Source: Candidatus Latescibacterota bacterium (GTDB taxonomy: Bacteria > Latescibacterota > UBA2968 > GCA-2709665). Taken from it: a stretch of DNA of 64,000 bases. Both the position numbers and the translations under genes were made by a program. Shown one piece after another: positions 36,936 through 47,399 of the stretch (positions are counted from its first letter, which is position 1; the number at the start of each line of letters is the position of its first letter). The notes under the pieces are model-generated. The model was not told where the DNA came from, did no database searches, and was given only the letters and a program-made list of their open reading frames with translations. Location of the stretch: contig OZ252100.1 of NCBI GenBank assembly GCA_965248435.1, positions 3,136,001-3,200,000 on the forward strand. Direction: 5' to 3'.

Positions 36936-38114
36936 TCAGCCCTTGTGCTTGACCGTGAAGAAGGTGCCCAGCATCTCGCCCTCCCTGATGTCGTCCGGGT
37001 CGGCGTTGCCGTAGACGGCCAGCAGGGTGTCTGGCGCAACCTCTTCGACAGCACAGTAGTTCCACGCGTCCCAGGCCTTTGGGCCGTGATAGAACTGGAA
37101 GTGTCCGACCCAGGTGTCTCCGTCATCTGCGCTGAACATCAACCAGTTGTAAGGGCGACCGTATATGACGACAACGACCCCACTCTCCATCACGGTGGCA
37201 ACCGGCATCACGCCGCGGTCCGCGACGGGGAGGGGCATGCTCCATGTGTTGCCGGCATCGTTAGACCTGCTCATTCGGAGCGGCCTGACGCCGCCCCCGC
37301 CTACAGATCGCATGAAGGCGAGGACCTCCCCATTGGGCAGGATGACCGCATCCGGCTCGGTGAAGCCACCCAGGGTTGTTCTGTTGTTTCTGCTGAGGTC
37401 GAAGGCAACCGTTGAAAGATAGGTCCAATCTTTCCCGCGATCGGTGGAGCGGAAGGCAAAGATCCGGTTTTTAGGGAGGTCCCGGTTGTAGACGGTGCCG
37501 TTCTTCGAGACAGAGGTTCCGAAAACCACGACCGGGTCGTCCTCCCATCTGGCATAGTCGATGCCAAGCAGACTGCCGTCCCGGAGCTCCAGTATCCGCG
37601 CGTGACTCATCGCACTCAACTTCATCTTCTCGGGCACGTGGATGGCGATCTGTTCCAATTCCTCCGTCAGTCCGTTGTCTCGGGAGCGGACCAGCCATCC
37701 AAAGGACTTGGTGAAGCCCTTCAGATCACTTTTCTCGTCAGGTGGCGCAGCGTCGCAGGACAGACCGTCGCGCCTGACGAACTGGACGGTTTCGCCGTCG
37801 GACAGGTTGCAGGAATAGTTCGAGAACAGGGTGTTGACCTTGCTCCAGGATTTGGCCCCGTCGGTAGAACGCACTTGCGCATTTCTGGTGCCGGCTACAA
37901 GGTCGCCGTTGGGAAATTTGACGATGCTCCCGACACAAATCCCTCCGGCGTCTTCTTGAGGTATGATGACCTGAGTTTCACCTCGTTCAACTTCCAGACC
38001 GGCTCCGGTAAGCTCGCCCTGGACGTCCTCCAGGGTGTTGCACTGCAGGTCCTCAGGAATGTTGTAGCCGAAGGATTTTCTGTCCTTGGACCAGTGTGTC
38101 GATGGTATTGTCAT
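36936..38114 (-). CDS. BNR Asp-box (sialidase-fold) protein, paralog 2
   Basis: STDGAKSW, SRDNG, STDRGKDW, SNDAGNTWS, SADDGDTW; RBS ggagg. Confidence 0.85.
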   Translation of the reverse strand: MTIPSTHWSKDRKSFGYNIPEDLQCNTLEDVQGELTGAGLEVERGETQVIIPQEDAGGICVGSIVKFPNGDLVAGTRNAQVRSTDGAKSWSKVNTLFSNYSCNLSDGETVQFVRRDGLSCDAAPPDEKSDLKGFTKSFGWLVRSRDNGLTEELEQIAIHVPEKMKLSAMSHARILELRDGSLLGIDYARWEDDPVVVFGTSVSKNGTVYNRDLPKNRIFAFRSTDRGKDWTYLSTVAFDLSRNNRTTLGGFTEPDAVILPNGEVLAFMRSVGGGGVRPLRMSRSNDAGNTWSMPLPVADRGVMPVATVMESGVVVVIYGRPYNWLMFSADDGDTWVGHFQFYHGPKAWDAWNYCAVEEVAPDTLLAVYGNADPDDIREGEMLGTFFTVKHKG

Positions 38115-38162
38115 GATTGCCTCCTCCACTCAGGGTTCTGGCTGCTTTTCGATCGCCCGGGT

Positions 38163-39344
38163 TCAGCTTTTTCGTTTGACCGTGAAGAATGTAGCCATCT
38201 GTTCACCTTCTTCAACATCGTCTGGGTCGGCGTTGCCGTAGACTGCGAGCAGGGTGTCGGGCCCGACTTCCTCGACGGCACAGTAGTTCCACGCGTCCCA
38301 GGCCTTTGCGCCGTGATAGAATTGAAAGTGGCCGACCCAGGTGTGACCTTCATCCGTGCTGAACATGAGCCAGTTGTAGGGGCGGCCGTAGATGACGGCG
38401 ATCACCCCGTTCTCCATTACGGTCGCAACGGCCATCACGCCCCGGTCCGCGACGGGCATGGGCATACTCCATGTCTCGCCGCCGTCGTTGGATCTGCTCA
38501 TTCGGAGCGGGCGGATGGTACCGCCGGCCACGCACCGCATAAAGCAGAGGATCTCTCCGTTTGGAAGGATCACCGCATCCGGCTCGGTAAAGCCACCAAC
38601 GGTCAGTGTGTTGGTCCTGCTGAGGTCAAAGGCCACGGTGGAAAGATAGTGCCAGGTCTTTCCTCGGTCGGTGGAACGGATGACAAAGGTCCGGGATTTG
38701 CCGACTTCCCGTGACCATACGACCCCCTCCTTCGTACACCACGTTTCAAGCGTCGCCGCACCGTCACCCTCAAAACTGCCGTAGTCAGCTGCAATCAAGC
38801 TGCCGTCGTCCAGCTCGATGATTCTTGTATGATGCATCGCGGTCAGCTTGAGCTTTTTGGGTACATGGATGGGTACAAGCTCAACTTCCTCTGTCACGCC
38901 GCTGTCCCGGGATCGGACCAGCCACCCGAAGGCCTTGGTGTAGCCTTCCACGTCGCTCGCCTCATCCGGGGGAGCGACCTCCCAGCCGTGCCCGGTACGG
39001 CTTGCGAACTGGACGGTTTCACCGTCGGACAGGTTACAGGCATAGTTTCCGAACAGAGACTTGCCTACTTTGCTCCAGGTTTTGCCGCCGTCGCTGGAAC
39101 GCACCTGCGTCTTTCGCGTGGATGACTGGAGATCCCCGTTGGGGAACCTGACGATGCTCCCGACGCAAATCCCTCCCGCGTCTTCCTGAGAGACGATGAC
39201 CTGAGTCTCCCCACGTTCCACTTCCAGGCCGGCCTCTGCAAGCTCTTCCTGGACATCATCCAGGGTTTTAACCGGCAGATCTTCCGGAATGTTTATGCCA
39301 TAGGTCTTTCTGTCCTTGGACCAGTGTGTCGAGGGTATCGTCAT
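38163..39344 (-). CDS. BNR Asp-box (sialidase-fold) protein, paralog 1
   Basis: SSDGGKTW, STDRGKTW, SNDGGETWS, STDEGHTW; colinear with the downstream paralog. Confidence 0.85.
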   Translation of the reverse strand: MTIPSTHWSKDRKTYGINIPEDLPVKTLDDVQEELAEAGLEVERGETQVIVSQEDAGGICVGSIVRFPNGDLQSSTRKTQVRSSDGGKTWSKVGKSLFGNYACNLSDGETVQFASRTGHGWEVAPPDEASDVEGYTKAFGWLVRSRDSGVTEEVELVPIHVPKKLKLTAMHHTRIIELDDGSLIAADYGSFEGDGAATLETWCTKEGVVWSREVGKSRTFVIRSTDRGKTWHYLSTVAFDLSRTNTLTVGGFTEPDAVILPNGEILCFMRCVAGGTIRPLRMSRSNDGGETWSMPMPVADRGVMAVATVMENGVIAVIYGRPYNWLMFSTDEGHTWVGHFQFYHGAKAWDAWNYCAVEEVGPDTLLAVYGNADPDDVEEGEQMATFFTVKRKS

Positions 39345-39387
39345 GATGGGATCCTTTGTGAGAGACACCCTGCGGGGGGGTGTCCAT

Positions 39388-39603
39388 GAGACGCCCCGGT
39401 GGGGCGTCTCTACGGGTTAATGGATCGCTGGAATCGAGACGCCCCACCGGGGCGTTCCCAGGTTAATGGATCGCCAGGATCGAGACGCCCCACCGGGGCG
39501 TTCCCACGGGTTAATGGATCGCCAGGATCGAGACGCCCCACCTGGGCGTTCCCACGGGTTAATGGATCGCCAGGATCGAGACGCCCCACCGGGGCGTCTC
39601 TAC
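39388..39603. repeat. Tandem array of 48-nt units each containing a REP-like palindrome
   Basis: Units start at 39388, 39436, 39482, 39530, 39578: gagacgcccc-acc-ggggcgt(ctcta/tccca)c + gggttaatggatcgccaggatc. Confidence 0.92.
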
Positions 39604-40001: not shown

Positions 40002-40169
40002 GCGTTGCTCCTTGTTGTCCGCCAAGTCAGACCCAGATACGTGGAGTGCTGTGACCATAAGCGCGATGAGAACTGCGAAGGTTCGTATACTTCCTTGCAT
40101 CCCAATCCTCTTTTTTATTGGATTGGCCCCTCTTTTGCTATAACTATAATGCAGGAGAGGAATAAAAAG

Positions 40170-40198
40170 TTGACGCCTCAAAAAGAATTGCGTATACT
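40170..40198 (+). promoter_or_regulatory. Sigma70-type promoter of the cold-shock gene
   Basis: TTGACG-17 nt-TATACT, giving a long 5' UTR typical of csp genes. Confidence 0.7.
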
Positions 40199-40334
40199 GA
40201 CCCCGAAATCGAAGCATGCCGGTCTCTGTATCCTATGCAGTCGAACAAAAAAGAAGACAACATGGCAAGGATCAGAAGTTCCGATTCTTGCCTTTTTGTT
40301 TGGGCAACAGGTAATAAATTCCCAGTAGAGAAAG

Positions 40335-40547
40335 GTGGTGAATCAGTTGGCAGAAGGCAAAGTGAAGTGGTTTAACGATGCCAAGGGCTTCGGGTTTATC
40401 GAGCAGGACGGCGGCGAAGATGTGTTTGTCCATTTTTCCGCGATCCAGGGCGATGGGTTCAGGTCATTGGCCGAGGGAGACAGTGTCCAATTCGACATTG
40501 CTCAGGGTCCTAAGGGGCTACAGGCCGAGAATGTGGTCAGACAATAA
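40335..40547 (+). CDS. cspA: Cold-shock protein
   Basis: [34 protein letters not shown]. Start could be TTG at 40347. Confidence 0.95.
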
Positions 40548-40581
40548 TCAGCGATAATTAAGAAGAGTTTTCGTTGGTTCC

Positions 40582-40622
40582 AATGGGTGTCATCTCGATG
40601 AGGTGGCACCCATTCTCTTTTC
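40582..40622 (+). terminator. Intrinsic terminator after csp (possibly bidirectional)
   Basis: aatgggtgtcatctc-gat-gaggtggcacccatt followed by ctctttt. Confidence 0.75.
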
Positions 40623-40651
40623 GGAACCGAGGATATCGTCCTCCCACCCGA

Positions 40652-41269
40652 CTATTTCTGCGTCTTAAGTCCAGCCTTTGCCGCTGCCAGGAGCAGATCC
40701 GGATCAAGCCGCACCTTATATTCAGGATTTACGTACTGGAAGAGAATCAGACCGTCTGTTCCGACCAGATAAACGGCGGGGACTGGCAGTGGACGCCTTC
40801 CCTGAGGACTGAATACGATTCCAAAGGCCCTGGCAACGGACAAATCTTCGTCAGAAAGGACACGATACGTAAGGCCGTGCTTTTCAATCGTGTTAAGGAT
40901 CTCCTCCGGAGGATCGGGGCTGAGGGCAAGGATTTGGTATCCCAGCTCGGCAAGCTCTGGTTGGATTCGCTGCAGTTGAACCAACTGCCGGTTGCAATGG
41001 GGTCACCAGAAGCCGCGATAGAAAACCAGAACCGTCGGTTTTTTGGAAAGCGCATCCTTCAAATCGAAACGGCGACCTTTCGTGATTTTCAGGTCCACAT
41101 CCGGGATGTGCGTTCCCACCAGGAGGGGCCGAACGTCAGACGGGGCGTTGGGCAGGGTGCTTTCATCCCCGGGCTCCTTTGCATCCGAGAACGTGAAATG
41201 AAACAAGATGGCGGACAGGGGAAAAAGGAGCAGGACCCTGCTTCGATCTAAACACCTACCAAATGCCAT
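40652..41269 (-). CDS. Exported AhpC/TSA peroxiredoxin-like selenoprotein (UxxC), 205 aa by TGA read-through
   Basis: ORF-track pieces 41003-41269 and 40652-40984 are in one frame; joined they read VLVFYRGFW-U-PHCNRQL...ALSPD...VLSD...PVPAVYLV. SECIS-like hairpin follows the TGA. Confidence 0.88.
40967..40997 (-). promoter_or_regulatory. Bacterial SECIS-like hairpin
   Basis: Minus strand ttgc-aaccg-GCAGTTG-gtt-CAACTGC-a-gcga; upper stem begins 15 nt after the TGA with G at the apex. Confidence 0.65.
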
Positions 41270-41428
41270 ATGTGACTCCTTCTGAAAGCACCCGTGCGCG
41301 TGAATCAGGGAGCGATTCTACATCTCGGATGATTTAAGGATAACACTCGAACGGGCGGAAAGCTAAACGAAAAAGTGTAGAAGCAGGCGGCCTCCAGGAG
41401 CATCCAAAACTGCGGTTTAACCGCTCGC

Positions 41429-44194
41429 TCAACCTCCAAGCTTCAAGATTTCCCTGGCGAAAGAGAGTTGAACAACACGATTTCGAAACGTGCCCGGTCC
41501 CTCGCTGAAGTCACTCAGCCCCAGGTTGTAACGAAGGTCTATCTGAAACCCGATCGGGAGGTCCAGGCCGGCGCCCAGAACTAAACTGGCCTCTGACCGC
41601 TTGATGTTGTCGTCGATGTCAAAACTTTGCTTTCTGCCCGCGTCCGTTATGACGGTGGTTCCACCTACCGGAAAACCGATCTGAGGTCCCAGATAGATTC
41701 GGGCTGATCTCGATAATTGACGACCGATGAGAACTGGAATGAGGATGTAGCGGACTCTGTTCGTCTCTTCCAATGCCCCAACTGTCCTGTTGTAGCCCTG
41801 GTTCGAGTAAGTCAATTCCGGCTGCAGGAACCAGCCGTGCTTGAGAAAGATTTTTTCATAGAGCCCGGCGTGCCATGCCCATCGGGACGATGTCTCGGCC
41901 GCATCTCCGGAGACCGTGGCAGCGTTGACACCGGCCCTGAAGCCCAGTCTTGGTCCCCCCGCCTGCTGCTTCTTTCCGTTGGGACGGCGATAGATCCCTA
42001 TCCGCTCTTCCAACTCCTGGTCACGCTTCGCCGCTTTTTGGAGCGCTTTCGCCTCATCGCAGGAGATAACCCGGTTCCCTTTGGCCCTGAATCCAAAAAG
42101 CGATTTGATACAGTGCCCGATTACGCGTTTCCGAAAAACCAAGCGGTAGGCCTCCGGGGCTGCGTACCGTGGATAATGCGCATCGGGATCGACCTGATCG
42201 AGTCGACGGTTGAGTTCCAAAAGCTGCGTCTCGAGGAGGACGCGGCCGCGGGTGAAGGAGAGAAGGTCTCGCGTGTATGCCCCTCCCTCAGCGTAGGCGA
42301 CGGTTGCGATCCGGTCGGCTTTCAGACGGCTTGTCGTGCTCTCCCGGGATAGGATATTTCGTACCGTGTCACGGAGGGCAGCCCGATCAGAATCGAGGAT
42401 CGTTCCGATCTTGGCCAGGGCGTCGAGTACCTCCTCCGACTCCTCCCTGGCGACGCCCGCCATGAACTCGACCACCCCCTGCTGCTGGGAGCGCGTGAAG
42501 CGTCCAGTGTTTCCGAAGTCGATGATCGTCAGGTGAGAGTTTCCCACAAAGCGGTCCTCGAACTGTCCCTCGCCCTCCTGAAGCGAGAAGAAGACGTTTC
42601 CCGAATGAAGGTCTCCGTGGAAGAAACCGCTTCCTAACAGTGCCTCTTGCATCCAGAGTTTTGCCAGCTCAAAAAGGGCTTCACCTTCGGACGACAACAG
42701 GTTTGCCAGGTAGTGGTCGGCAACCGCGCGATTGGCCTTGTGTGTTTCAGCTCTGACGGTGGCGTCTACCTCGGTGAGTTTCTCGTTGATCTTGTCGAGC
42801 GTGGGCGCGTCGACGAATTCGATCGCCACGAGAGAGTCAGAGGGGGAAACGAACTCAACCACGCGAGCGACCCCGATTCTGGGATGTCGGTAAACCCGAG
42901 TGGCTTCTCGAATTTCGTCGGCCTCGCGACCCAGGTTCATCTCCCGTTCCAGCGTTGCACGCACGTCTTTGATCAGCTTTTTCGCGAAAGGCGTTTCTGC
43001 GGCGCCCTCGAAGAGCGCCATCTCCCGTTCTACAGATTCTATCAACCCGGGACGCTTGACTTTGATGATGAATCGCCTCGAGCGAGCCGAACCCTTATCC
43101 ACGGTCACTTTGTGCGCCTGTGCAATCGTACCCGCGCCGACGGCTCGATAATCTACCGTGAGGCGGGGATAGATCGAATCAGGGACGGACCGGCGAAGAA
43201 CGGAATCGATCGTTTCTCGGATGTCTTGTTCTCCATACACTTTGATCCCGCTCTTCAACTCGTTCAGCTGCGCGCGAACCTTCGGATTGTTCGTGTAGTC
43301 GGCGATCATCTGGAAGAGTTTCTGGAGAACCGGGCCGCTCGCGTGAAACATCGCCGCCATCCGGCGGTGAGGCTCTGCCATAAGGTAGTGGATGGCCATC
43401 CGGTGTTTATCCCTGAAGGTCCGATAGTAGATCGGGAGGTGAAGATTCAGGAGCTCGGCGTATTTTTCGGGCATTCCCGCAGTCAGGGCACCGATATCCA
43501 TCATCTGGCTGAAGTCGATAGAGTTCGAAGATACCTGGCCGTTGCCCAGCAGGCGATCGTTGACAGTATTGACGATGTCCACGTAGAAGCTGTCACTGAA
43601 GGCGTGGTCGATGAGTTGTCGCCGTTGCGAAAGGTCCAGATCTCTATAGACACGCTCGAGCACCCCGAGGGCAGCGGTGCGTGCCGCAGGCACTGCGCAA
43701 GGATCGGCGCTAGAGTCCACGAGCTGTGCAAACTCACTCCAGGCGCTCTCGACCCAGCCCGTCGTCTGTATGACGAGCCTTCTACAGACCAGGGAGTCGA
43801 CCCGTGACTGGAGGGCGTTGACATCTCCGACGAGGTCTTTGACCTGCGCCGCTTCGGTAATATGGGGAAGGCCGCCATTCAGCCATTGGAGGAGATCCGG
43901 ATACTTCGCAGCGACCGTCTTGAGGCGCTCAGCGCTTTCCTGCGTCCGTTGGAGATCCGTTCGTGATAGGGCACAGGCGTGAACGATTTCTGCGAGGAAG
44001 ATTCGGAACAGGGGCCCGTCTGCTCGATCCTGACTCTGCAAGATGGTTTGGAGCTGGTCTGCGGGGTATTCAGGAAGGAGGAGCGGCTGGGCGGCTGCTC
44101 TGGAGTAGAACAGCGCGGGCCATATCAGAAGGGTGAGCCAGCGAGGAAAAATCCGGACGAAGTGGCCACGGGTCCGTGTTTGGGGAGAGGCCAT
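41429..44194 (-). CDS. Signal peptide + ABC1/UbiB/AarF atypical kinase + C-terminal outer-membrane beta-barrel
   Basis: GPVLQKLFQ (KxGQ variant), GAGTIAQAH, IKVKRPG, FHGDLHSGN, IDFG; last ~170 aa RLGFRAGVN...LQPELTYS..G...YILIP...LGPQIGF...IDLRYNLGLSD...NRVVQLS. Confidence 0.82.
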   Translation of the reverse strand: MASPQTRTRGHFVRIFPRWLTLLIWPALFYSRAAAQPLLLPEYPADQLQTILQSQDRADGPLFRIFLAEIVHACALSRTDLQRTQESAERLKTVAAKYPDLLQWLNGGLPHITEAAQVKDLVGDVNALQSRVDSLVCRRLVIQTTGWVESAWSEFAQLVDSSADPCAVPAARTAALGVLERVYRDLDLSQRRQLIDHAFSDSFYVDIVNTVNDRLLGNGQVSSNSIDFSQMMDIGALTAGMPEKYAELLNLHLPIYYRTFRDKHRMAIHYLMAEPHRRMAAMFHASGPVLQKLFQMIADYTNNPKVRAQLNELKSGIKVYGEQDIRETIDSVLRRSVPDSIYPRLTVDYRAVGAGTIAQAHKVTVDKGSARSRRFIIKVKRPGLIESVEREMALFEGAAETPFAKKLIKDVRATLEREMNLGREADEIREATRVYRHPRIGVARVVEFVSPSDSLVAIEFVDAPTLDKINEKLTEVDATVRAETHKANRAVADHYLANLLSSEGEALFELAKLWMQEALLGSGFFHGDLHSGNVFFSLQEGEGQFEDRFVGNSHLTIIDFGNTGRFTRSQQQGVVEFMAGVAREESEEVLDALAKIGTILDSDRAALRDTVRNILSRESTTSRLKADRIATVAYAEGGAYTRDLLSFTRGRVLLETQLLELNRRLDQVDPDAHYPRYAAPEAYRLVFRKRVIGHCIKSLFGFRAKGNRVISCDEAKALQKAAKRDQELEERIGIYRRPNGKKQQAGGPRLGFRAGVNAATVSGDAAETSSRWAWHAGLYEKIFLKHGWFLQPELTYSNQGYNRTVGALEETNRVRYILIPVLIGRQLSRSARIYLGPQIGFPVGGTTVITDAGRKQSFDIDDNIKRSEASLVLGAGLDLPIGFQIDLRYNLGLSDFSEGPGTFRNRVVQLSFAREILKLGG

Positions 44195-44228
44195 GGGTAA
44201 GATCTAATTCGGGTTAAGGAAATTGGCC

Positions 44229-45812: not shown

Positions 45813-46670
45813 ATGGAGATAAATCTTGGCGCGCAGCTTCTCCCTGAGGAGACGATCCGGCAGTTTGATGAGGAAGGGTATCTGATCATTCGCGAGGCGC
45901 TGGACGTGGGGACGATAGACTTGCTCACAGAGGCTGGCGACCGTCTCGTGTCCAGCGATCGTTCTGAGAACCGCCAAAGGAGTGAGGATGGTCAGTACGA
46001 CAGCTTTCGCAACTGCATTGCTCTGGACGATGCCTTTGTTCCACTCCTGGTCCACGGGAAGGTCTTTCCGATCGTCGTTCAGCTGCTGGGAGCCTACCTC
46101 CATTTAACGACTTCACATCTGATCTATAAATTCCCTGATCCCCACGACACATCCGCCTCGGTCCGTTCCCCTGAGTGGCATCGCGATTATGGGCGCCTGA
46201 CTCAGGATCTGGGTCACGCGGCGGTCCCGCGCGCTATGTTGAAGTGCGCTTATTACTTGACCGATTTGATCGAGCCGAACTCGGGAGCGACGCTGGTTGT
46301 GCCTGGAAGCAACCTGCTTCGCAAGCCGCTGGAGATTGCAGAGGGAGAGGCTGATCCTGATGGCGTTTTTGAGCCGCGTTTGAGGCGTGGAGACTGTCTT
46401 CTATTCGAGAACCGAACCTGGCACGCAGGCGCTGCGAACCTTTCTGATCACACGCGCAAGGCTGTTATGTTCGGGTATGGCTATCGCTGGGCTGCGCCGA
46501 TCGACTATCGAACTCAACCTGCTTCATTGTTAGAAAAGGTAGATCCATTGGGGCGCTATCTTCTGGGTGAACCCATGAAGGCGTCCAGCGAGTACCAGAT
46601 TAGCGGGGGGGAGAGCCCCCTGAGAGCCTGGTGTGAGAAACATGGGCTGCCTCTAGTGAGACCGCAGTAG
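45813..46670 (+). CDS. Phytanoyl-CoA dioxygenase (PhyH) family Fe/2OG oxygenase
   Basis: F.EEGYL, WHRD, G.T.VVPGS, GD.LLF...WH, R. Confidence 0.9.
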   Translation: MEINLGAQLLPEETIRQFDEEGYLIIREALDVGTIDLLTEAGDRLVSSDRSENRQRSEDGQYDSFRNCIALDDAFVPLLVHGKVFPIVVQLLGAYLHLTTSHLIYKFPDPHDTSASVRSPEWHRDYGRLTQDLGHAAVPRAMLKCAYYLTDLIEPNSGATLVVPGSNLLRKPLEIAEGEADPDGVFEPRLRRGDCLLFENRTWHAGAANLSDHTRKAVMFGYGYRWAAPIDYRTQPASLLEKVDPLGRYLLGEPMKASSEYQISGGESPLRAWCEKHGLPLVRPQ

Positions 46671-46674
46671 AAGC

Positions 46675-46761
46675 AGTTTCGAGTTGCGAGTTTAAAGTTT
46701 CTAGTCAAAACCGAAGCTCATCTGATATGAACTAGAAACCCGAGACTAGAAACCAGAAACT
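46675..46761. repeat. Inverted pair of AGTTTCT-type heptamer runs between convergent genes
   Basis: agtttcg agttgcg agtttaa agtttct agt ... act agaaacc cgagact agaaacc agaaact. Confidence 0.7.
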
Positions 46762-47399
46762 TTTTTCTGCCAGTTAAGCGCCAGGGCTTTCACGGCCAGG
46801 TAGAGGACGGCTCCGTTCAAGATGTGCCAGAGGAAGTGGGTACCGAAGGGCACAAGATCACAAACGACGGAATCTATCGTGCGGAAGGTGAGTGAGACCA
46901 GGAAGATTGCGGATGCAACGAGCAGGGCCAGGCGTGCCCGCTTTTTGGTGATGTAGTGGTATGATCCAAAACAGATCAAGACCAGGAGGCCGGGGGCGTA
47001 TGAAAGCGACCTGTTCAAGACATCAGGGAGCTGCCTTCCGAGAACGGCCAAGATGAAGAAGCAGCAAAGGGTCGCTCCGGATGCTGCCCGGCTCAGCTGG
47101 ATGATCCGCCTCGAGTAGAGCCAAACGAAACATATTTGAAAGAGGAGGATCGGGGTCACGTCGAGAAGCTGTGCCCAGGTCGTCGCGAGGGTGTGAAATA
47201 AGGTGCTGCCGATCCCGATCGCGAGGATGAGCGCGATCAGAAGCGTGGCCGCGCTCGATTCCCTGTCGGAGTTACGGACCAACCTCCAGGCGGCCCAGGC
47301 TGCGGCGAAGAACGCGAGGTTCGTCAGCGCATTCATCGGTTCCGCCCATAGCCCGGGCTCGGTTCGCTCGCAGTATAGATCGACGCACCCAGAGGTCAC
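46746..47399 (-). CDS. Ceramidase-domain (CREST superfamily) membrane protein
   Basis: YCERT.PGLWAEP.NA.TN, GS.LFH, D..PI, D..C..GTHFLWH; multiple TM segments. Confidence 0.88.
   Translation of the reverse strand: MTSGCVDLYCERTEPGLWAEPMNALTNLAFFAAAWAAWRLVRNSDRESSAATLLIALILAIGIGSTLFHTLATTWAQLLDVTPILLFQICFVWLYSRRIIQLSRAASGATLCCFFILAVLGRQLPDVLNRSLSYAPGLLVLICFGSYHYITKKRARLALLVASAIFLVSLTFRTIDSVVCDLVPFGTHFLWHILNGAVLYLAVKALALNWQKKVSGF

Follow-up and report, generated by a model that had tools for sequence, protein, structure and literature searches.

Proteins of the UbiB/COQ8 family (PF03109) are ancient and widespread, and their mechanism is still debated; to our knowledge, the well-studied bacterial members all sit on the cytoplasmic side. 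COQ8A (ADCK3) and bacterial UbiB share a kinase-like fold with an N-terminal helical lid of the KxGQ type and a set of motifs made up of an Ala/Gly-rich loop that ends in Q, VxK, HxDxHxGN, and DFG. In PMC13418538, COQ8 is described as an ATPase that acts as extractor and chaperone of insoluble lipid intermediates and whose ligand pocket is gated by ATP hydrolysis. The kinase-like part of yeast Cqd1 is placed in the intermembrane space by passages of PMC10214851, according to which the protein contacts the outer-membrane porin Por1 and Om14 and affects coenzyme Q (CoQ) distribution and phospholipid homeostasis. Here we analyze a gene in a window of 64,000 nucleotides from a marine Candidatus Latescibacterota bacterium (assembly GCA_965248435.1, contig OZ252100.1, positions 3,136,001 to 3,200,000 of the forward strand). 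The gene encodes a 921-residue protein (P0001) in which a predicted signal peptide, a helical domain, a UbiB/COQ8-type kinase domain, and a predicted outer-membrane β-barrel follow one another in a single chain. The reading that we favor, with a probability of roughly 0.6, is that of a periplasm-facing, outer-membrane-anchored UbiB-type ATPase that would handle a hydrophobic ligand.

Architecture of the kinase-barrel protein

The gene is a single uninterrupted open reading frame (ORF) whose coordinates were verified by translation (Table 1). Two Pfam domains scored above their gathering cut-offs, ABC1 (PF03109) over amino acids (aa) 323-591 (63.9 bits versus 22.9, E 1.6e-17) and OMP_b-brl_2 (PF13568) over aa 749-897 (64.6 bits versus 27, E 1.6e-17), and E-values of this size exclude a chance match for either domain. 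A second barrel profile, OMP_b-brl (PF13505), also passed (42.4 versus 28.7). The AlphaFold2 (AF2) model of the whole protein, built on a 129-sequence alignment, reached a mean predicted local distance difference test (pLDDT) score of 90.2 and a predicted template modeling score (pTM) of 0.81. Its helical region (about aa 45-315) leads into a kinase-like alpha/beta core that ends near aa 700, after which come a long helix at 712-732 and 8 long antiparallel strands at 749-918 (pLDDT mostly >90); the model thus predicts the COQ8-like and barrel folds with high confidence. All the elements that the original prediction had listed (signal, helical region, kinase motifs, linker, and barrel) were found in the translated frame.

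Profile-profile alignment with hhalign matched P0001 to canonical UbiB with a probability of 99.9 and mapped the motifs one to one (P0001/UbiB: GPVLQKLFQ/GPTFIKFGQ, AGTIAQAH/AASIAQVH, IIKVKRPG/VVKVKRPG, FFHGDLHSGN/LFHGDLHSGN, and IIDFG/LVDFG), the Ala/Gly-rich loop reading VGAGTIAQAH. The exact KxGQ pattern is absent from P0001, the sole change being that of Gly to Phe between the retained K and Q; the alteration to KLFQ that had been noticed at the outset is therefore borne out, with QKLFQ aligned to IKFGQ of canonical UbiB. Across 24 sequences with 21-55% identity to P0001, G287, P288, Q291, K292, Q295, Q359, K378, R381, P382, E418, E424, D528, N533, D559, and G561 are invariant, and the equivalent catalytic columns are invariant also in a second set of 44 longer relatives. 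That the catalytic residues stay invariant across such divergent relatives speaks for a functional nucleotide site and against a dead scaffold.

When the AF2 model was compared with the PDB by Foldseek, COQ8A ranked first (7udq, 5i35, and 4ped; E 9e-10 to 8e-9, target TM score 0.62-0.67), followed by the mycobacterial ABC1 proteins MSMEG_1954 and Rv3197 (E 1e-8 to 5e-7), for which ADP and AMPPNP complexes have been solved. The TM scores of the mycobacterial proteins are lower than those of COQ8A (0.41-0.54), and their solved chains hold neither a barrel nor a long N-domain because they comprise just 313-401 residues. A sequence search of the PDB with the whole protein gave 0 matches at E≤0.01. 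Several features set P0001 apart from COQ8A and UbiB: it has a signal peptide, whereas they are located in the matrix or the cytoplasm, and it adds a 235-residue N-domain, an insert of approximately 25 residues at about aa 475-502, and the C-terminal barrel. Unlike UbiB, it lacks C-terminal transmembrane helices and reads QKLFQ in place of KxGQ. The scores against the NCBIfam UbiB equivalogs were far below the cut-offs (44.1 versus 667 for PRK04750), and assignment of P0001 as UbiB proper was rejected on its score of 91.6 bits versus 487.55 for TIGR01982, its N-terminal signal, and the lack of any later hydrophobic 19-mer.

The N-terminus, MASPQTRTRGHFVRIFPRWLTLLIWPALFYSRAAA/QP, contains four arginines and a basic n-region, then a hydrophobic core of 12 residues, with AAA preceding the probable cleavage point. 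In an alignment of P0001 with its three closest full-length homologues (A1), the leader is variable and the mature start AQPLVLPEYP conserved, a pattern typical of signal peptides that are cleaved off. A crude hydrophobicity score also marks this N-terminus as signal-like, and the AF2 model has a poorly packed lone helix of low pLDDT at aa 16-30. We infer from these features that the signal peptide is cleaved. The domain that follows is, in the model, entirely helical; modeled in isolation (aa 36-275) it gave a pLDDT of 86.7, and Foldseek with this domain alone found 0 PDB matches at E≤0.001 among the 424 listed.

The connector between kinase domain and barrel ends in a linker (733-748) that has lower model confidence and is predicted to be flexible. 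C695 and C712 are invariant in the barrel subclade (alignment A1), a pair that would suit a disulfide in an oxidising compartment. The original prediction of a C-terminal barrel holds: apart from the Pfam scores, Foldseek matched this part of the model to the 8-stranded barrels Ail, OmpX, the OmpA membrane domain, NspA, and OmpW, and the strands show the alternating hydrophobicity of membrane barrels, with connecting loops of 2-10 residues. Over its full length, the segment can be aligned with 13 stand-alone outer-membrane proteins of approximately 200 aa that have their own signal peptides. These PF13568 barrels share with it the 8-stranded fold and the motifs QPEL.YS.QG, Y.N.P, GPQ.G, RYNLGLSD, and NRV.Q.S over the whole barrel (28-33% identity in the 129-sequence alignment and 34-38% in local matches), but their signal peptide directly precedes strand 1, whereas in P0001 a 700-residue enzyme lies in between. 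OmpA is arranged the other way round from P0001, its barrel preceding its periplasmic domain. The lack of a terminal aromatic residue, raised earlier as a caveat, loses much of its weight, although not all of it. P0001 ends in ...QLSFAREILKLGG, and the same non-aromatic ...LxxxGx tail occurs in 3 of the 13 stand-alone homologues (P0076, P0139, and P0144); in 7 of the 13 the chain stops shortly after the last strand, in 5 of these 7 with an aromatic residue in the final position or beside it, and the model places the tail of P0001 within its last strand.

Table 1. Coordinates in the window of the kinase-barrel gene, its predicted parts, and nearby features.
Feature	Position	Strand	Basis or remark
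Whole gene	41429..44194	(-)	921 codons + stop, TGA at 41429-41431
Predicted Sec-type signal peptide, aa 1-35, likely cut AAA/QP	44090..44194	(-)	Sequence features, leader variability, model
Clade-specific all-alpha N-terminal domain (predicted), aa 36-270	43385..44089	(-)	Model pLDDT 81-96
ABC1/UbiB-like kinase fold including KxGQ-type helices, aa 271-700	42095..43384	(-)	Pfam, Foldseek, hhalign
QKLFQ, aa 291-295, counterpart of KxGQ (K292 and Q295 kept; Gly to Phe)	43310..43324	(-)	hhalign, alignment, translation
K378, ATP-binding lysine of IIKVK, invariant	43061..43063	(-)	Alignment, translation
Catalytic loop HGDLHSGN, aa 526-533 (D528 and N533 invariant)	42596..42619	(-)	Alignment, hhalign, translation
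DFG, aa 559-561 (D559 invariant)	42512..42520	(-)	Alignment, translation
Connector, aa 701-748: long helix 712-732, then basic linker 733-748	41951..42094	(-)	Model, alignment A1
Predicted 8-stranded outer-membrane beta-barrel, aa 749-921	41432..41950	(-)	Pfam, model, Foldseek, alignment
Two terminator-like hairpins right after the stop codon	41378..41424	(-)	Region count at chance level; position alone suggestive
Cold-shock protein gene, 70 aa	40335-40547	(+)	Pfam CSD 101.8 bits; within the extra segment

Recurrence of the fusion and the wider ABC1 clade

A word-indexed search of 5.8 billion proteins, with 8000 scored candidates, yielded 5 proteins at E≤0.001, the query included. Two are full-length homologues that bear the barrel, P0002 (921 aa, 53% identity) and P0003 (903 aa, 50%), another is a 732-aa homologue without the barrel (P0004, 56%), and the fifth is one canonical UbiB. 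In addition, the fragments P0011 and P0008 contain the kinase C-terminus running into the first barrel strands. The architecture that had been proposed is thus both real and rare, with both Pfam domains above their cut-offs and few homologues carrying the fusion. At the nucleotide level, contigs from one public run, which may be the source, cover the whole stretch with zero differences, a 27.5-kb contig is identical, and two contigs from different seawater studies, one of 1042 bases (41881-42921) and one of 151 bases (41919-42069), cross the junction at about 41950-42000. Continuity at this point, for which the original prediction had advised a check, is therefore provided by two independent studies, and the fusion recurs in P0002 and P0003.

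Other searches added no further case. The barrel part, searched among proteins of 506-1612 aa, retrieved only the query itself out of 1219 candidates, a result from a shared-word search that does not prove absence. A contig scan with FH[GA]D[LM]HxGN was dominated by canonical UbiB and gave no further fused forms; of its 80 loci, 78 have KxGQ, 1 has QKIFQ (L003, from an Oligoflexia metagenome-assembled genome), and 1 has neither. Separately, we observed a 65-aa protein, P0084, in which a query-like aa 231-253 is joined straight to aa 879-921 at a shared 'LPI'; an assembly collapse or a deletion variant is the probable explanation.

HMMER, run exhaustively against 1.84 billion representative proteins, returned 3998 proteins at E≤0.001, 37 of them at E≤1e-30. 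The best matches beyond the close homologues are proteins of 600-850 aa with 25-32% identity whose alignments run over approximately aa 59-713 of P0001, and these relatives therefore share both the N-domain and the kinase part. Among 106 full-length-like relatives, GPxxQKxxQ is present in 91 and KxGQ in 10, and a later hydrophobic 19-mer in none, while the canonical UbiB P0005 has two (at 501 and 526). The crude score marked a signal-peptide-like N-terminus in 56 of the 88 relatives of up to 1000 aa, some of the other 32 of which may have miscalled starts, and in 1 of the 18 relatives longer than 1000 aa. As judged from sequence, P0001 is one member of a larger clade whose proteins mostly begin with a signal-peptide-like N-terminus. 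We also tried this clade as a lipoprotein family and rejected the assignment, a lipobox being present in just 2 of 95 members. A Pfam scan of 44 long members found no barrel and no recurrent extra domain.

In a FastTree phylogeny of 45 rows that included 11 canonical UbiBs, and in which long branches leave the deep order uncertain, the split of the clade, P0001 included, from all 11 was fully supported. The three barrel-bearing proteins grouped together (support 96) as sister to P0004 and the truncated P0006, so the barrel was gained or lost once; it is limited to a small subclade whose sister lineage is without it. Two observations concern other parts of the clade. In many members (P0010, P0012, P0014, P0015, P0024, P0031, P0035, and more), the sequence that follows the leader contains a single cysteine, located 10-30 residues before the C-terminus in the context C-x-x-[FLY]-[FY]; the barrel subclade has C695 and C712. 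The very long relatives P0064, P0073, P0087, and P0094 (1239-2406 aa) have no signal-like N-terminus and form their own fully supported group within the QKxFQ clade.

Where members have names, the annotation goes no further than 'AarF/ABC1/UbiB kinase family protein' (Oligoflexia) or predicted unusual kinase. The ESM Atlas contained only sub-threshold ABC1 clusters (scores 0.76-0.77), the nearest of them from Bdellovibrionota. A profile search of this phylum matched 96 of 121 sampled genomes, with canonical UbiB not separable by E-value, and members bearing the N-domain were picked by eye in approximately 10 of the 121, taking matches that reach the N-domain in a frame of at least 650 aa or on a truncated contig. 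Full-text literature searches, outside subscription journals and supplementary files, found no description of an exported ABC1/UbiB protein or of an ABC1-barrel fusion. The earlier statement that no protein with this architecture has been described agrees with these literature and protein searches. Both domain families were already known; what this analysis adds is their architecture, a predicted location, the N-domain, and an exported clade recognized as such.

Proposed function and competing explanations

OmpA, OmpX, and other 8-stranded barrels have both chain ends in the periplasm, and an enzyme of 700 residues placed before strand 1 should therefore sit beneath the outer membrane. On this textbook topology, we infer a periplasmic orientation for P0001. 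The protein would be exported by the Sec pathway and its C-terminal barrel would insert into the outer membrane, leaving the helical domain and the catalytically intact UbiB/COQ8-type domain to hang in the periplasm on the helix and the basic linker. There, it would bind a nucleotide and, by hydrolyzing it, drive the binding, extraction, or transfer of a hydrophobic small molecule on the periplasmic side of the outer membrane; the leading guess for the ligand is an isoprenoid lipid, and a quinone is no firmer than a guess. ATPase activity, a lipid substrate, and a source of nucleotide are proposed, the activity by analogy with COQ8 and yeast Cqd1. Of the possibilities that the original prediction offered, an outer-membrane-tethered kinase-like or lipid-handling protein is the one that we prefer.

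In this reading, P0001 looks like a single-chain version of the arrangement of yeast Cqd1, which as described in passages of PMC10214851 is also a UbiB-family domain situated between two membranes and coupled to an outer-membrane β-barrel, but which has an inner-membrane transmembrane anchor and binds the porin non-covalently, whereas P0001 carries the barrel in its own chain and has no inner-membrane anchor. The intermembrane-space location of Cqd1 (passages of PMC10214851) also makes the earlier statement that characterised UbiB proteins face the cytoplasm or the organelle interior incomplete. A more ambitious proposal, that P0001 is the first bacterial nucleotide-driven periplasmic lipid extractor of the UbiB/COQ8 type, hard-wired to a barrel as a single-chain counterpart of Cqd1-Por1/Om14 and an anchored member of the exported ABC1 clade, is tentative, and we hold it with much less confidence than the general one.

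Several points weigh against a periplasm-facing ATPase. The first is nucleotide supply: the mitochondrial intermembrane space has an ATP supply, unlike the setting of P0001, and we know of no ATP-regenerating system in the periplasm. The signal peptide and the topology of the 921-aa protein are predictions from sequence and model, and the count of 8 strands derives from the model, in which DSSP breaks one strand in two. The 305-aa metagenome fragment P0008 reads HGNLHSGN, with Asn for the catalytic Asp. Runs X5 and X8, from two seawater studies and a strain 95-97% identical, have an extra G after 42458, and since those contigs contain no second gap within 41881-42921, the frame would shift near aa 579; the strain may truly carry a pseudogene, or the assembly may be in error there owing to low depth. 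The gene is also dispensable and accessory: with P0001 as query it was found in just two genomes, the source genome (G000) and G004, both among the 41 close relatives and among all 168 genomes examined from the phylum, and it is missing at the syntenic site of a sister species. No partner gene recurs across G000, G004, and eight other loci, including some from Bdellovibrionota, and the surroundings thus offer no pointer to a substrate. As to quinones, the best UbiA-type match in the genome scored 127.7 versus an equivalog cut-off of 275.45, and MenA had no match in the genome (other ubi genes were not searched). Lastly, passages of the review PMC7432876 state that the route of ATP into the periplasm is unknown; the same passages quote approximately 24 uM ATP per 10^10 cells for the E. 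coli periplasm, and the earlier objection that this compartment is not ATP-rich is thus fair but has to be set against that figure.

A periplasmic kinase or binding protein for small molecules, which would detoxify or sequester an antibiotic, xenobiotic, or metabolite crossing the outer membrane and use the barrel as a mere anchor, is a doubtful alternative. The Foldseek matches to MSMEG_1954 and Rv3197, the latter including an erythromycin complex (5yk2), are in its favor, a sporadic accessory distribution fits a defence-type gene, and the Pfam APH profile (PF01636) matches 26 of the 44 long clade members. In P0001, however, APH scored 22.0 bits, below its gathering cut-off of 23.2, the top structural matches are to COQ8A and not APH, no resistance or efflux genes adjoin the gene, and the nucleotide-supply problem would be the same.

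That P0001 is a true protein kinase acting on periplasmic or outer-membrane proteins is unlikely. Points in favor are the protein-kinase-like fold, which retains the complete catalytic set, and the substitution, throughout the clade, of a bulky residue for the Gly of KxGQ; KxGQ-motif mutations unmask autophosphorylation in COQ8A, and the substitution could alter the lid over the cleft. The K and Q of the motif and the entire KxGQ helical region are nevertheless retained, Pfam Pkinase had no match to P0001 at E≤1, and the text consulted from PMC10214851 and PMC13418538 names no characterised ABC1 member as a protein kinase; protein phosphorylation by the enzyme is accordingly improbable.

The original prediction had also considered an autotransporter-like effector, perhaps using external or host ATP. 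Such an effector would be displayed on the surface by a barrel that exports the kinase part. The order of passenger and barrel, a faint Pfam Autotransporter match, and the presence of relatives in predatory Bdellovibrionota and Oligoflexia would fit this idea, but it fares badly against the barrel itself, and we consider it quite improbable. The Autotransporter match scored 16.3 bits under a cut-off of 26, the best fold matches are OmpX, Ail, and OmpA, with EspP only at rank 44 (TM 0.25), and the predicted external loops are just 2-10 residues long. The model has 8 strands rather than 12 and no helix within the barrel, helix 712-732 lying outside the barrel segment, and P0001 was on these grounds rejected as a type Va autotransporter. 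A barrel of this kind offers no pore through which a folded passenger could pass, and for one of approximately 700 residues we know of no route.

An evolutionary accident, either a recent fusion without selected function or a decaying accessory gene, is very improbable. The great rarity of the fusion, its absence from the same site in the sister species, and the frame-breaking insertion in the seawater relatives point that way, but barrel-bearing sequences at 50-53% identity keep intact frames and all motifs of both domains and group in a single clade (support 96), as would be expected from long purifying selection. A chimeric assembly joining two genes, for which we found no supporting points, is excluded by the homologous fusions on independent contigs, the fragments spanning the junction, the junction-bridging contigs from two other studies, and the 27.5-kb identical contig.

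Genomic surroundings and meaning

In the sister species (G001; L126, C1 7948-7987), an amidase gene, 83% identical, and a glyoxalase gene lie approximately 40 bases apart. In G000, about 4.2 kb (40035-44228) separate the two, and this segment holds the kinase-barrel, redoxin, and cold-shock genes. No convincing direct or inverted repeats flank it. The GC content of the gene (0.578), of the extra segment (0.554), and of the genome (0.566) gives no sign of a recent import. A promoter scan found 0 sites, and no RNA data set was listed as containing the gene. The form in G004 is barrel-less, its frame ending after the kinase part and an unrelated gene beginning 14 bases on. G000 has no second ABC1 gene; its other weak ABC1 match is a Hanks kinase, a true Pkinase protein.

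Within the extra segment, two apparently split redoxin ORFs (40652-41269, reverse strand) form a continuous frame apart from one in-frame TGA (41003-41005), located exactly at the first Cys of a CxxC motif (...FYRGFW-TGA-PHC...). With TGA read as U, the product has 205 aa and matches the whole AhpC-TSA profile with 98.7 bits, versus 51.4 for the C-terminal part alone. It carries a signal peptide, a hairpin (-12.9 kcal/mol) begins 15 nt past the TGA, and the genome encodes selA and selB above their cut-offs with tRNA-Sec beside them; the redoxin is probably an exported selenoprotein. Upstream of the amidase gene lie a PhyH-family dioxygenase gene (45813-46670, forward strand) and a ceramidase-family membrane protein gene (46746-47399, reverse strand), which are not tied to the kinase-barrel gene because both are present in the sister species too. 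Beyond the glyoxalase gene, a 48-bp unit is repeated 4.4 times at 39388-39597 (90% matches, with a GC-rich palindrome in each unit) between it and a BNR gene, and tandem BNR_2 (sialidase-like repeat) paralogues occupy 36936-38129 and 38163-39368 on the reverse strand, where the sister species has a single copy.

The exported clade and its barrel branch would challenge the assumption that there are no nucleotide-dependent enzymes of the kinase fold in the periplasm. The barrel fusion would fix the location of the enzyme, and both location and activity are experimentally tractable. As a bacterial parallel to the contact between Cqd1 and a porin, the protein could bear on how hydrophobic lipids move between two membranes. 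If the proposed function is true, an energy-dependent process would handle isoprenoid or other lipids on the periplasmic side of the outer membrane, and the periplasm must then supply usable nucleotide or another phosphoryl donor.

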